This document shows, in pieces, positions 1,078-47,837 of a stretch of 64,000 bases of DNA (position 1 is its first letter; each line of letters opens with the position of its first letter). A program made the position numbers and the translations under genes. Under the pieces are notes generated by a model. That model had not been told where the DNA came from, made no database searches, and was given only the letters and a program-made list of their open reading frames with translations. Source of the stretch: an uncultured Verrucomicrobiae bacterium (GTDB lineage Bacteria > Verrucomicrobiota > Verrucomicrobiia > Chthoniobacterales > Terrimicrobiaceae); assembly GCA_963706955.1 (NCBI GenBank), contig CAVPOC010000008.1, positions 512,001 through 576,000 of the forward strand. The letters run 5' to 3'.

Positions 1078-1821
1078 ATGTCTGTCTCCTCCGCTTCCAC
1101 TACGACCTCCCCAGGAATTTCGAATGCATTAATTCGCTGGATTTTTTCCTCCATCGGCAAGAAGACCGTTGTCGCAGTCACTGGCATCGTCCTGGTGCTC
1201 TTTGTCATCGGACACATGATTGGCAACATGACGGTGTTCTTTGGCCCTGATACAATTAACGCATACGCGATGCATCTTCGCGATCTGGGTCCACTACTTT
1301 GGCTGATACGGCTCTTCATGTTGACCTCGGTGGTCCTCCACATTTGGTTCACGATGCTGGTGTGGAAGGAAAATGTGGAAGCTCATCCTCAGAAGTATGC
1401 AGTTTTCGCTCCGATGAAGACGACGATCTTCGCGCGGACGATGCGCCTCACCGGTCTGATCCTCCTGGCTTTCATTGTGTTTCATCTGGCCCATTTCACG
1501 CTGCTCCTCGTCGATCCCGGCTACGCCAATTACCACACAGATCTCCATGGGAGAGAAGTGCACGATGTCTACCGAATGGTCATTGTCGGTTTCCGCAATC
1601 CGTTCGTCAGCCTTTTCTACATCGTGGCCATGGCGCTTCTGGCATTCCACCTGAGTCACGGGGTCGCGAGCTTGTTCCAGACCTTGGGCGTCACGGACCA
1701 GAGGATGCGGTTCTATTACGAGACTGGAGGGCAAATCCTGGCCTGGATCCTCTTCGTCGGATATGTCGCGATACCGGTTTCGATCCTTGTCTTTGGCTTG
1801 GGCAACGGAGTTGTAAAATGA
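1078..1821 (+). CDS. sdhC: Succinate dehydrogenase/fumarate reductase cytochrome b subunit (b558 type)
   Basis: [13 protein letters not shown], five TM helices, heme-ligand His residues (GHMIGN, LHI, FHLAHF, FHLSHG); its stop overlaps the sdhA start (ATGA). Confidence 0.93.
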
Positions 1822-3737
1822 CACTCGACGCACACATGCCTCCTGGTCCGCTGGAAAGAAAATGGACGACCTACAAGAATAACGCCAAGATCATTAGCCC
1901 GGCAAACAAGCGGAAGTTCAAGCTGATCATCGTGGGAAGCGGATTAGCGGGAGGCGCAGCTGCGGCGACACTTGGCGAGCAGGGATTCAATATCGAATGT
2001 TTCTGCTATCAGGACAGCGCGCGCCGCGCCCACTCGATTGCCGCACAAGGGGGAATTAACGCGGCCAAGAACTATCAGAACGACGGCGACAGCGTCTATC
2101 GGCTCTTCTACGACACTATCAAGGGCGGAGACTTCCGCGCGCGGGAGGCGAATGTCTACCGTCTGGCGGAGGTCAGCGCCTCGATCATCGATCAGTGCGT
2201 GGCGCAAGGGGTTCCATTTGCACGCGAATACGGCGGTCTTTTGGCCAATCGTTCCTTTGGAGGCGCGCAGGTCTCACGCACATTCTATGCGCGCGGCCAG
2301 ACTGGCCAGCAGCTTCTTTTGGGCGCATATCAGGCGCTTTGCGCACAGATCACCGCCGGCCAGGTGAAGATGTTCCCGCGCACCGAAATGCTCGATCTCG
2401 TCATTGTCGATGGACATGCCAAGGGCATCGTCGTTCGGGACATGGTGAGCGGCGAGATTCGCAGCCATGCCGGTGACGCAGTCCTGCTCTGCACGGGTGG
2501 TTACGGCAATGTCTTTTACCTCTCCACCAATGCCAAAGGCTGCAATGTGACCGCCACGTTCCGCGCCTACAAGCGTGGCGCATTGTTTGCCAATCCCTGT
2601 TACACCCAAATTCACCCCACTTGCATCCCGGTGGCCGGAGACTATCAATCGAAACTTACCCTGATGAGCGAGTCGCTCCGCAACGACGGCCGGGTCTGGG
2701 TTCCCAAGCGTAAGGAGGATTGCAACAAGCCTCCTCACGAAATTCCGGAGGAGGCGCGCGACTACTATCTTGAGCGTAAGTATCCAAGCTATGGAAATCT
2801 GGCGCCGCGCGATATTTCCTCCCGCAGCGCGAAGGAAGCCTGTGACGAGGGCAGAGGAATCGGTCCGGGCGGGCTTGGCGTTTACCTTGACTTCTCCGAT
2901 GCGATCAAGCGCCTCGGGCGGAGTGTTGTCGAGGAGCGTTACAGCAATCTCTTCGAAATGTATGAAAACATCACCGGCGAAAATGCTTTTGAACGGCCCA
3001 TGCGCATTTACCCGGCCGTCCATTACACCATGGGAGGATCGTGGGTGGACTACAATTTGATGAGCAACGTTCCCGGTCTGCACGTCATGGGCGAAGCAAA
3101 CTTCTCCGACCACGGCGCCAATCGCCTCGGCGCCTCGGCACTGATGCAAGGTCTCGCCGACGGCTATTTCGTGATCCCCTATACCATCGGCAACTATCTC
3201 GCCGGCGAATTCAACAAAAAGCGTCCCCAGCCCAGCGATCCCGCATTCCAGCAAACGGAAAAGGAGGTCCGCGAACGCGTTCAGCGCCTGCTCAGTATCA
3301 ATGGCACCCGAACTGTCGACAGCTTCCACCGGGAGCTTGGCCTCCTCATGTGGGACAAATGCGGGATGGCCCGCGATAAGGCTGGCCTGGAGGAAGCCAT
3401 CGCCCGGATGCCCAAGCTCCGTGACGAATTCTGGTCGAATGTCAAAGTTCTTGGCGCCGGGGAAAACATCAACCAATCGCTGGAAAAGGCCGGACGGGTC
3501 GCCGATTTCCTCGAGTTCGGCGAACTGATGTGTCGCGATGCCTTAGATCGCAATGAATCGTGTGGCGGGCACTTCCGTGTCGAATATCAAACTCCGGAAG
3601 GCGAGGCGCTGCGCGATGACGAGAATTACGCCCACGTCTCCGCGTGGAAGTACGAAGGCCCAGACAAGGAACCAACGAGGATCAAAGAACCGCTCGTCTA
3701 TGAAACCGTGAAACTGGCGACGAGAAGCTATAAGTAG
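1818..3737 (+). CDS. sdhA: Succinate dehydrogenase/fumarate reductase flavoprotein subunit
   Basis: GSGLAG FAD motif, [13 protein letters not shown] covalent-FAD His motif, [26 protein letters not shown]. Confidence 0.97.
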
Positions 3738-3768
3738 GTTGATGGCTGAGAGTTGATGGTTGATGGAC
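3738..3768. repeat. Left arm of heptamer inverted repeat (4 x GTTGATG-like + GAC)
   Basis: gttgatg gctgaga gttgatg gttgatg gac, starting directly after the sdhA stop codon. Confidence 0.9.
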
Positions 3769-3784
3769 ACTTCCAAAGCAGCTC

Positions 3785-4138
3785 ATGTTTAACTTTGAAA
3801 AATTAGAAGCTTGGCAGCGAGCCGTTGATTTTGCGGATCTCGTTTACGCCACAACACGCGGCTTTCCGCGCGAGGAACTATTCGGGCTTGCGATGCAGAT
3901 GCGGAGGGCTGCTGTCTCAGTGTCTTCGAATTTAGCGGAGGGAAGTTCGCGGTCCTCGCGCGTGGACTTCGCCAGATTTACCGAGATCGCTACCGGCTCA
4001 CTCTTCGAGGTGATTTCACAGAGCGTTATCGCAAAGCGCCAAGGACTTCTTAGTGAAACGGATTATCTTAAGGCCTATCAAGCCGCCGAAAAGCTCGGAA
4101 GAATGTTGAGTGGGCTTCGAGGTTCGCTGCTTTCGTGA
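3785..4138 (+). CDS. Four helix bundle protein (23S rRNA intervening-sequence protein family, TIGR02436-like)
   Basis: [10 protein letters not shown]...[40 protein letters not shown] is the family signature; 117 aa. Confidence 0.92.
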
Positions 4139-4145
4139 TGAGCGC

Positions 4146-4176
4146 GTCGATCAACCATCAACAATCAACCATCAAC
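4146..4176. repeat. Right arm of heptamer inverted repeat (GTC + 4 x CATCAAC-like)
   Basis: gtc gatcaac catcaac aatcaac catcaac; its reverse complement matches the left arm at 27/31 positions; ends 5 nt before the sdhB ATG. Confidence 0.9.
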
Positions 4177-4181
4177 TCTCC

Positions 4182-4940
4182 ATGAACTTTACTTTACGCG
4201 TTTGGCGCCAGAACGGGCCCAAGGAAAGCGGACGTTTCGAAGAGTACCCCGCGCATGATATCCCCGCGGATGCTTCCTTTCTGGAGATGTTAGACATTGT
4301 CAACGAAGGGCTGATCGAAAAGAACGTTGAGCCGATCGCCTTTGATCACGATTGCCGTGAAGGCATTTGCGGAACCTGCAGTCTCACCATCAACGGAGTG
4401 CCCCATGGTCCAGGCAGGGGCACGACATGTCAGCTTTACATGCGCAAGTTCCACGATCGCGATGTGATCACGGTGGAGCCATTTCGGGCGGCGCCGTTTC
4501 CGGTATTGCGTGATCTCACCGTCGACCGCAATGCCTTCGACCGCCTCATCCAGGCGGGCGGATTTATCACCGAGCGCTGCGGTGCGGCTCCGGATGCGAA
4601 TGCGCTCCCGATTCCTAAAACCATTGCCGACCTTTCCATGGACGCCGCTGCCTGCATCGGTTGCGGTGCATGCGCCGCTGCCTGCCCGAACAGCTCCGCG
4701 ATGCTCTTCGTCAGCGCTAAGACTGGTCACCTTGGCTTGCTGCCCCAAGGCAAAGCCGAAAAGTACCGCCGAATTCTTAAGATGGTTCGCACCATGGACG
4801 AAGAAGGCTTTGGCAATTGCTCGAACTATTATGCATGTGAAGCTGTCTGCCCGGCCGGCATTCCGGCGGCATTTATTGCGCGGTTAAATCGTGACTACAC
4901 CGTGGCCGCGGCGAGAGAATCGGTCGGCGCGACATATTAG
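4182..4940 (+). CDS. sdhB: Succinate dehydrogenase/fumarate reductase iron-sulfur subunit
   Basis: [13 protein letters not shown] (2Fe-2S), [12 protein letters not shown] and [12 protein letters not shown] clusters. Confidence 0.96.
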
Positions 4941-42342: not shown

Positions 42343-42347
42343 TTAAT

Positions 42348-42462
42348 TCTGGCAATGACCTACTCTCGCGCAAGCTAGACAAGCACTACCATCGGCGCTG
42401 TGGCGTTTCACTTCCGTGTTCGGGATGGGAACGGGTGGGACCACCACGCAAGAATCACCAGA
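42348..42462 (-). rRNA. rrf: 5S rRNA
   Basis: CCCGTTCCCATCCCGAACACGGAAGTGAAAC and GCCGATGGTAGTG motifs; ends approximate. Confidence 0.95.
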
Positions 42463-42614
42463 CGATAGGAATCGTCATTCGACTCCTAGATGTCTGGCAT
42501 CTTACCTTCCTGCCAAAACTTGAAAGAACCTCTTGGTTCTCTGACAACCGCATACTAGGGCAAACCCGCAACGCCAACGATCTGAATCTGCATGAAGCTG
42601 ATCGAAGAATAAAA

Positions 42615-45581
<2,967 letters not shown>

Positions 45582-45810
45582 TTTCTTCGATATTTTGAAA
45601 TCTCTTATTTTTGTGCAATCACCGTGTCCGCCGATGGCGGAGCAATGATTGCGCAGACTCAGCAAATTGTTGAAGTTGCATTCTAAATTTGCCCTGTATG
45701 CGGATGTCAAAGAACTTGCCGCGGGACGAACCCGCAGCGGCTTGACGCCTGTCCGGTTCTCGAACCGGCGACAAAATTCAAAACGTTTTTCAAAGAAGTT
45801 TTCAGCACTG

Positions 45811-45884
45811 TGGGCCTGATAGGACTCGAACCTATGACCCTGCGCTTATCAAGCGCATGCTCTAACCAACTGAGCTACAGGCCC
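45811..45884 (-). tRNA. tRNA-Ile (GAT), CCA not encoded
   Basis: GGGCCTGTAGCTCAGTTGGTTAGAGCATGCGCTTGATAAGCGCAGGGTCATAGGTTCGAGTCCTATCAGGCCCA. Confidence 0.97.
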
Positions 45885-46001
45885 ATGGGGAAGTTGGTTG
45901 AGAGTTTCAAGTTTGATAGTTCGTTGAGAAGGAATTCTCTCCAAGCTCTCAAGCTTAGGAAACCTCTCAACTCGTTCGCCCTGTAAAACGGCGATTACGA
46001 T

Positions 46002-46074
46002 TGGAGGCAAGGGGACTCGAACCCCTGACATCCAGCTTGCAAAGCTGGCGCTCTACCAACTGAGCTATGCCCCC
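46002..46074 (-). tRNA. tRNA-Ala (TGC), CCA not encoded
   Basis: GGGGGCATAGCTCAGTTGGTAGAGCGCCAGCTTTGCAAGCTGGATGTCAGGGGTTCGAGTCCCCTTGCCTCCA; G3-U70 pair. Confidence 0.97.
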
Positions 46075-46080
46075 TCTAAA

Positions 46081-46143
46081 GTTGATGGTTGAGGGTTGAT
46101 GGTTGAGAGACTTTCACTCAACGCTCAACTTTCGACTCTCAAC
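46081..46143. repeat. 4+4 heptamer hairpin in the 16S-23S spacer
   Basis: gttgatg gttgagg gttgatg gttgaga gac tttc actcaac gctcaac tttcgac tctcaac. Confidence 0.85.
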
Positions 46144-46302
46144 TCGAAGAGCAGTTGCCAGCAGGTTGTGTGATTCAGGCAAACACTGGATAGTGCGTTC
46201 TTTCTTGATCTCGACCTCTGGAGCTTTCGGTCCAGAGAATTTGTTTCCGCCGAGGCGGAATCAGACTTGCCGTACCGCGAGAGTCTCGCGGGTTAGGCAT
46301 TA

Positions 46303-47837
<1,535 letters not shown>

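Follow-up and report, generated by a model that had tools for sequence, protein, structure and literature searches.

An IVP gene cassette between inverted heptamer arrays at the sdhA–sdhB junction of an uncultured Verrucomicrobiae bacterium: a candidate intervening sequence in messenger RNA

The stretch analysed comprises 64,000 nt from an uncultured Verrucomicrobiae bacterium of the family Terrimicrobiaceae (contig CAVPOC010000008.1, positions 512,001–576,000; hereafter the window), in which the junction between sdhA and sdhB of the succinate dehydrogenase operon sdhCAB is filled by a gene cassette at positions 3738–4181. The cassette consists of one small gene for a four-helix-bundle protein of the 23S_rRNA_IVP family (hereafter IVP), set between two complementary arrays of tandem 7-nt repeats (hereafter the arms). 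We are highly confident that it belongs to a widespread type of small cassette in which a PF05635 gene lies within such arrays, and that this type is akin to the intervening sequences (IVS) of 23S rRNA that bear an open reading frame (ORF). For the sdh locus we favour, as a fairly probable reading, a resident IVS-type cassette in an mRNA, looped out of the sdhCAB transcript by its own stem.

The flanking and enclosed genes were assigned with profile searches. The sdhA product matched the Bacillus-type model NF005749 with 1165.6 bits, together with FAD_binding_2 and Succ_DH_flav_C, the match starting at residue 173 of a longer ORF that opens at 1299. Upstream, the sdhC-like protein scored 23.3 bits against Sdh_cyt in the Pfam profile search (E-value 7.1e-5), which is under the cut-off of 25.8 bits. 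The IVP protein covered the complete PF05635 profile (positions 1–106 of 106; E-value 7.5e-34; 116.6 bits, cut-off 33.8) and also matched TIGR02436 (E-value 1.2e-31; 109.1 bits, cut-off 24), with XCC0516 (PDB 2GSC; E-value 1.4e-20; five chains) as its nearest solved structure.

The left arm, GTTGATGGCTGAGAGTTGATGGTTGATGGAC, opens immediately downstream of the sdhA TAG, as an earlier note on this DNA had stated, and the right arm, GTCGATCAACCATCAACAATCAACCATCAAC, stops at 4176 and is followed by tctcc and then by the sdhB ATG at 4182. A repeat search recovered the arms described in that note, namely two stretches of 31 nt (3738–3768 and 4146–4176) that pair at 27 of 31 positions (87%) around the IVP gene and enclose an interval of 377 nt. 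Both arms consist of tandem heptamers (direct-repeat families D1 and D2, spaced 14 nt apart), and pairing is therefore possible in other registers besides this one, termed I1: a second (I2) joins 3732–3766 to 4155–4189 with 71% complementarity, a third (I4) is a perfect 17-mer between 3748–3764 and 4164–4180, the two being offset from I1 by 7 and 14 nt. The earlier placement of the right-arm end 5 nt before the sdhB ATG is correct for I1 and incorrect for the other registers, I4 ending at 4180. When folded, the cassette region (481 nt) reached −172 kcal/mol with the arms paired (z −3.03), and none of 100 shuffles was as stable; the window contains 10 occurrences of the heptamer pattern GTTGAKR where 0.11 would be expected, and none of 100 shuffles reached that count. 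All elements of the observed architecture are thus confirmed, with the right-arm end to be qualified as above.

Hallmarks of a transposon or insertion sequence were not found. The IVP gene is the sole ORF of at least 60 aa in the insert and Pfam identifies it as IVP, in line with the claim that a transposase is lacking; comparison of filled with empty junctions revealed no target-site duplication, which had likewise been claimed. Rfam covariance models, self-splicing introns included, gave no match at 3738–4181 at the gathering score, the matches within the window being rRNAs, tmRNA and two tRNAs only. An intrinsic terminator is absent at the arms, where the right arm runs into tctccATG with no U tract after the stem; one terminator-like site was found in the cassette, weak and inside the ORF, which is no more than chance would give (0.8 expected). 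Since the motif scan returned no promoter-like site in the cassette, the latter is presumably part of the sdhCAB transcript. Upstream of sdhB (5 nt plus arm) and of the IVP gene, no Shine-Dalgarno (SD)-like motif was found. Genome-wide, such motifs are barely enriched (13.6% versus 10–11%) and the 16S rRNA end has CCUCC; this analysis was crude, the first ATG of each long ORF serving as its start, and hints only at weak SD use. Feature positions are collected in Table 1.

Table 1. Positions of the cassette, its neighbours and related arrays. Unprefixed positions refer to the window; those with a contig prefix refer to contigs of the same genome (G000).
Feature	Position	Strand	Remarks
sdhC-like membrane subunit	1078..1821	+	ORF; TGA overlaps sdhA ATG (ATGA)
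sdhA, flavoprotein subunit	1818..3737	+	start ATG 1818; stop TAG 3735-3737
Left arm, G-rich GTTGAKR heptamer array	3738..3768	+	inverted repeat I1, direct repeat D2
IVP gene, 117 aa, four-helix-bundle / 23S_rRNA_IVP	3785..4138	+	PF05635, TIGR02436
Right arm, C-rich YMTCAAC heptamer array	4146..4180	+	I1, I4, D1; register ends: I1 4176, I4 4180
sdhB, iron-sulfur subunit	4182..4940	+	NF005746 391.6 bits; Fer2_3
112-nt 23S insertion at hairpin tip	43738..43849 (approximate)	-	cmscan: 112 nt versus 2 in model
ORF-less GTTGAKR hairpin in 23S insertion	43783-43849	-	core of insertion; two smaller hairpins beside
ORF-less GTTGAKR hairpin, 16S-tRNA spacer	46081..46143	-	partner array scored 20/27
GxxExxY/PDDEXK_3 locus L089	G000 C3:723830-724270	-	(CACAGAN)n inverted arrays
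GxxExxY/PDDEXK_3 locus L088	G000 C13:45692-46045		CACAGAG arms; then start of second such unit
ORF-less (TTAAGTT)n/(CTTAAAA)n hairpins	G000 C2:86525-86627, C3:429783-429883, C3:643787-643878		

Tight coupling is suggested by the layout of the operon, given the ATGA overlap of sdhC and sdhA, the gaps of 1–37 nt at empty sdhA–sdhB junctions of relatives, and the lack of an SD motif at sdhB and the IVP gene. A stem at the transcript level is favoured since an insert of 440 nt would break this coupling unless looped out. Pairing of the G-rich left arm with the C-rich right arm would form a stem of ~30 bp, loop out ~380 nt and put the sdhA stop beside the sdhB start, and it is through this stem that an otherwise tightly coupled operon would tolerate the insertion. 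The chances that the stem forms and matters in the sdh mRNA appear evenly balanced. Two routes may be envisaged from there. Cleavage by RNase III would free a stem-capped IVP mRNA and part sdhCA from sdhB, which, by analogy with rRNA, we put forward tentatively. Alternatively, coupling might operate via the stem without cleavage, in that ribosomes halting on the sdhA stop codon would melt the stem base and free the sequestered, SD-less sdhB start; we regard this route as about as doubtful as cleavage, and the present data favour neither.

To assess conservation, sdhB was sought in 61 genomes of this family and recovered from 55, and junctions were taken wherever both genes shared a contig. This yielded 53 junctions; three loci cut by contig ends were left out, and the query used retrieved no sdhB from four genomes of the genus. 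Full cassettes of 424–487 nt occupy 14 of the 53 junctions and come from 11 genomes, with diverged sequences; one junction (G029) holds a remnant of 205 nt, and the other 38 are empty, with gaps of 1–37 nt, which fits the normal tight junction expected in the earlier note upon removal of the element. All 10 junctions of the genus, from seven assessable genomes, are filled, and outside the genus the cassette was found in four members of the family (G025, G013, G007 and G042). In each cassette, the arms open just past the stop and close just before the ATG, and the arm–arm duplex energies range from −28 to −59 kcal/mol, the weakest being that of the remnant. A gene kept at this position without the repeats, named in the earlier note as a case that would speak against it, was not encountered, with arms present in 14 of 14 full cassettes.

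These data also bear on the possibility of a chance inverted repeat or an assembly artefact. The genome is a 15-contig assembly with 92.5% completeness, and nothing further argues for an artefact. Against either origin stand the count of the heptamer pattern and the recurrence of the whole architecture at 14 junctions of 11 genomes in diverged sequences, by which both are ruled out; moreover, contigs of independent public runs cover both borders (see below). We thus consider this explanation practically dismissed.

Cassette presence requires at least six changes on a tree of the sdhA C-terminus plus sdhB (53 junctions). The IVPs of the sdh junctions form one clade, apart from IVPs at other sites (support of 89 in the Shimodaira–Hasegawa-like approximate likelihood-ratio test, SH-aLRT), and at some empty junctions (L015, L036, L038 and L029) right-arm-like TCAAC heptamers precede the sdhB ATG. 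The latter may be remnants of lost cassettes, although this cannot be proven, and the clade together with the remnants, the 205-nt one included, would favour old residence with repeated loss over site-specific re-insertion. Copying of the arms from the target site was considered and rejected because at other junctions, too, the protein is accompanied by its repeat unit; in addition, sister empty junctions lack the arm sequence (G002 versus G025; G001 versus G007). A caveat to this rejection is that the four empty junctions just named do hold TCAAC heptamers, for which cassette loss is again the proposed reading. The two arms of a cassette are cognate, since mean duplex energies of own arm pairs were −43.1 for the sdh and −28.3 for the metK cassettes, compared with −20.1 and −11.1 for cross-family pairs. 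Within the sdh group, own and cross pairs differed weakly (−43.1 versus −37.8), the fine-scale covariation being weak because all sdh arms share one unit.

IVP orthologues show a ratio of nonsynonymous to synonymous divergence (dN/dS) of 0.11–0.16 in the four pairs with dS < 0.7, from which we infer that the protein is made and matters. The dS values of IVP versus sdhB were 0.415 versus 0.371 (L008/L009), 0.485 versus 0.830, and 0.661 versus 0.635. The synonymous divergence of IVP thus tracks that of sdhB, and the element is old, occurring throughout the genus and, with a patchy distribution and cleanly empty sites, in the family at large. The same contig (C8 of G000) carries a second sdhCAB operon, the two operons lying at ~515 and ~1075 kb, and the gap between the sdhA TAG and the sdhB ATG of the second operon contains a frameshifted IVP gene (G000b) between (GTTGAGA)n arms. 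The two sdhB copies are close (dS 0.32), yet the cassettes are of two types whose divergence is saturated, a mismatch that suggests either gene conversion of the flanks or exchange of the cassette. Two copies were likewise observed in G046 and G049.

IVP genes are frequent in the family, with matches in 59 of 61 genomes, and the sampled loci have inverted heptamer arrays at their flanks, but with units other than GTTGAKR. A metK|ahcY cassette, whose neighbours were confirmed by Pfam, has units TTCAGTK or CTTAAAA, and the remaining loci have GTTCTTG, GAGTAAS, TCGAGRG and GTGGRCA. A wider sample comprised 80 IVP loci from many phyla, of which 78 had both flanks present. Here, the best-window match at lag 7 was 0.64 upstream and 0.61 downstream, compared with 0.37–0.43 at other lags and 0.374 in controls 600 nt away. 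Under a strict definition, lag-7 arrays were found on at least one side in 32 of the 78 loci and on both sides in 11, versus 1 of 149 controls. Pfam-checked contexts were operon junctions, namely livG|livF, ABC permease|ATPase, DUF58|BatA, PDH E1beta|E2, guaB|guaA and hemCD|hemE, and the neighbours on both sides were co-oriented in 44 of 70 loci. At the 48 loci with clear stems, the median distance from the upstream stop to the left arm was 3 nt and that from the right arm to the downstream start 9 nt, the latter with start-codon choice biased to the nearest one. By-eye inspection placed IVP genes with (GGGGACC)n-type arrays directly upstream of a carB-like gene in L128, L139 and L150 (Pseudoxanthomonas and a related metagenome-assembled genome, MAG), and a heptamer-armed IVP cassette apparently between two tRNA-like sequences in L169 (an Omnitrophota MAG).

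Unit and protein were then compared. In 21 of 26 loci the left unit differs from the right one by no more than a single mismatch, versus 8.6% of cross-locus pairs. For pairs of loci with differing downstream contexts, IVP identity is 0.61 at unit distance 0 and 0.39 at a distance of at least 3; units differ by one mismatch at most in 76 of 129 pairs with IVP identity of at least 0.55 and in 30 of 1690 pairs below 0.45. Contexts were told apart by shared 4-mers alone, and related loci do not count as independent. In verrucomicrobial relatives with 66–71% identity, GTTGAKR arms are found elsewhere, for example at livG|livF and ABC permease|ATPase. Arms and protein therefore diverge together and move together to other junctions, and because the unit follows the IVP across unrelated junctions, the arms belong to the element and not to the target.

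Arrays of the same and of other units occur elsewhere in this genome, 26 with period 7 being found by a strict detector, and ORF-less hairpins with TTAAGTT and GTTGAKR units are scattered through it. The hairpin at C3:429783 was seen by eye to end ~20 nt before an rpsD-like ORF. GTTGAKR arrays at C8:972664-972831 and C8:470700-470800 enclose or adjoin a short repeated motif (GACATAGGTAACAC-like) in both orientations, possibly a nested repeat or a further cargo of small size. The rRNA operon of the window (42347–47837, minus strand) lies 38 kb from the cassette and has two ORF-less hairpins of the GTTGAKR unit. One is within an insertion in 23S rRNA, near position 1763 of 2925 of the Rfam model, whose edges were estimated from the printed cmscan alignment; this insertion sits at the tip of a hairpin, putatively helix 63, just ahead of the conserved CGACUGUUUA..CAAAAACACAG. 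The other occupies the 16S–tRNA spacer. An RNase III gene is present in the genome.

Cargo other than IVP was also found, namely two GxxExxY genes with a nuclease fold that match PF13366 (E-values 3.9e-37 and 7.2e-41) and TIGR04256, both flanked by the unit CACAGAN (2 of 2 copies in the genome). At the metK|ahcY junction of this genome, where other genera have an IVP cassette, a GxxExxY/PDDEXK_3 gene is found between (CACAGAT)n and (ATCTGTG)n arrays. In their accessible text, PMC8934634 and PMC3424549 merely list GxxExxY or PDDEXK_3.

Two rival explanations merit discussion in view of these findings. According to the first, which we deem unlikely, the arms would be cognate sites for IVP, with about one heptamer per subunit of a pentamer, or the ends of a DNA-mobile unit, RNA pairing being a by-product and the cassette selfish or auto-regulated. 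The co-variation of the unit with IVP across unrelated junctions fits this, as do the GTTGAKR arms at other junctions of relatives, and so does the separate unit of the GxxExxY cargo. It also accommodates the same-unit ORF-less hairpins scattered through the genome, the lack of a G·U excess in the stems (see below), and the five-chained nearest structure 2GSC, which is referred to as a homopentamer in the available text of PMC4990558. Common descent of the whole element, however, would also give co-variation of unit and protein, and the related loci are not independent. The arms moreover persist in two copies whose ORFs decayed independently, the frameshifted G000b and the G029 remnant, and ORF-less hairpins persist in rRNA without a cognate protein. 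Finally, arm polarity relative to transcription is consistent, with a G-rich left arm in 66 and a C-rich right arm in 67 of 70 stems, which suggests a strand-specific role at the transcript level.

The second rival, which we judge improbable, holds that an ordinary accessory gene was acquired and that the hairpin serves mRNA stability or attenuation in a generic way, with neither a tie to IVS nor a role at the sdhA–sdhB junction. It would be compatible with the frequency of IVP genes in the family, the purifying selection on the gene, and the interpretation of IVP genes inside cas operons as functional partners in the accessible part of PMC3936711. It does not explain why period-7 inverted arrays recur around IVP genes in many phyla, nor the same-unit hairpins in the organism's own rRNA operon, and the U tract of a terminator is missing past the stem. 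Heptamers are also present in an experimentally studied rRNA IVS, according to the available text of PMC4990558, so an unrelated origin is unlikely.

Several points weigh against the preferred reading of an IVS-type cassette looped out of the sdh mRNA. Across the 70 stems, G·U pairs were not in excess over A·C mismatches (35 versus 52; binomial p 0.086), and for this reason selection on a sense-strand RNA helix is not visible; the test had low power owing to 110 mismatches of other kinds, which arise from mixing of heptamer variants. Among the 78 diverse loci, the duplex between own flanks passed the 1% tail of cross-locus pairs in only 18, with flanks of 110 nt making the null strong. The flush fit to both codons is trivially explained, being expected for any insert in a gap of 1–37 nt. 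That the unit tracks the protein clade is accounted for equally well by recognition of the repeat by the protein, at the DNA or RNA level. Lastly, IVP is translated here, whereas the S23p protein of the Coxiella IVS was argued not to be (PMC4990558, available text), and the mode of action may thus differ between the two.

Evidence for transcription came from four public RNA runs available as assembled contigs only, which provide no starts, ends or strand and in which coverage gaps are uninformative; the best RNA share of words was 0.27–0.30, and RNA-library contigs can include DNA. Such contigs span 3384–3789 and 3972–4231, thus bridging both cassette borders, and weakly indicate co-transcription, though DNA carry-over may account for them. 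High depth on 3738–3769 stems from contigs that continue into unrelated sequence (share running on unlike, 0.83–0.87), one of which is preceded by letters resembling a tRNA 3' end (by eye) and was taken for the rRNA-spacer hairpin of a relative. A candidate spliced form, an X3 contig joining 3767 to 4150 with 26 other letters, was rejected, as it represents a hairpin of other origin that shares the arms but lacks an ORF. Nothing in these data points to a circular RNA or to rejoined sdhA and sdhB transcripts.

Two further ideas on the heptamers were dismissed. As stop devices in three frames they fail, since by eye the units TTCAGTK and GGCTGTT have no stop triplet. A resemblance to integron attC, the core site of which we take to be GTTRRRY, was discarded because the units of other cassettes are unrelated, no integrase search having been made.

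A wider view, which is speculative and on the whole unlikely, would unite the heptamer-armed IVP and GxxExxY cassettes in one unrecognised class of elements that render themselves phenotypically silent at the RNA level in rRNA, tRNA spacers and operon junctions. RNase III would excise a register-tolerant stem with 7-nt periodicity, or coupled ribosomes would bypass it, and the cargo protein would recognise its own heptamer array, with about one unit per subunit. If so, the rRNA IVS, the heptamer repeats ahead of genes and a long functionless protein family would be facets of one system.

To our knowledge, the structure of a PF05635 protein has been solved and its function is not known, and IVS have been regarded as rRNA curiosities. 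Should the preferred reading hold, the IVP genes of operons (sdh, metK-ahcY, gua, PDH and cas) would be inserts and not pathway partners, and the stem would provide a simple model for the tolerance of an operon to 440 nt of inserted sequence where two genes are coupled. The match between unit and protein clade also suggests what IVP may bind. The sdh locus is suited to comparison, as it offers filled, decayed and empty junctions plus two paralogous copies in one genome.

Intergenic heptamers of the TAACTGA type, alongside which stand the short tandemly repeated repetitive (STRR) sequences of cyanobacteria, invite comparison. TAACTGA repeats are direct, with 2–6 units, and occur in Beggiatoaceae, cyanobacteria and Bacteroidetes; their largest class ends 1 nt before the start codon, and a role in translation was proposed (PMC4679880). 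They resemble the sdh right arm and the TCAAC heptamers at empty sdhB junctions but, in the available text of that paper, have no inverted partner bar one case, and neither an enclosed gene nor a link to IVP is given. IVP genes located between cas genes, for example cmr3 and cmr2, were read as functionally associated with Cas nucleases (PMC3936711); they are wedged in an operon like the sdh cassette, and the accessible part of the paper mentions no flanking arms. Avd of diversity-generating retroelements, the homology of which is treated in PMC10053308 (accessible part), belongs to the same four-helix-bundle superfamily, and IVP gave weak matches to bAvd PF22296 (E-value 2.8e-4) and NF033474 (E-value 1e-4). 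An assignment as Avd was rejected, as the scores of 21.8 and 22.5 bits compare with cut-offs of 40 and 80, respectively, and the neighbours are sdhA and sdhB instead of a reverse transcriptase, for which no wider search was made. A survey of rRNA insertions in the candidate phyla radiation reported IVP ORFs in 16S and 23S insertions (PMC11270868, available text). Our literature search, outside which lay subscription journals and supplements, found no description of IVP genes inside inverted heptamer arrays at mRNA junctions. The present locus adds a series of junctions in filled, decayed and empty states, a pair of paralogous copies, evidence of purifying selection, hairpins of the same unit in the rRNA operon of this genome, and an alternative cargo with a nuclease fold.

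The closest known system is the 23S IVS of Coxiella burnetii, the details of which are taken from the available text of PMC4990558, where IVS of Leptospira and others are cited as well. This IVS has 428 nt, is located in helix 45, and comprises a terminal stem of 28 bp, an ORF for S23p, and the heptamer GACAGAT in two or three tandem copies, depending on the strain; RNase III cuts the stem at the first heptamer repeat. Both it and the sdh cassette have a terminal stem of ~28–31 bp with heptamers in the stem region (GACAGAT and GTTGAKR, respectively), a sense S23p/PF05635 ORF in the loop, and no transposase, and variants without an ORF or with a decaying one are known for both 23S IVS and cassettes of the sdh type. 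This anatomy, the same-unit hairpins in the organism's own rRNA operon and the RNase III gene lend weight to the proposal of the earlier note that the element is an intervening sequence in an mRNA rather than in rRNA. The systems differ in that the sdh ORF is under purifying selection whereas the authors of the Coxiella study argue that S23p is not made, and in that cleavage by RNase III is proven for Coxiella and no more than tentatively proposed for the sdh cassette. They differ also in location, the classical IVS residing in helix 25 or 45 of 23S rRNA and the sdh cassette between protein genes of an mRNA. In every other structural respect, the sdh cassette conforms to the family of ORF-bearing 23S IVS.

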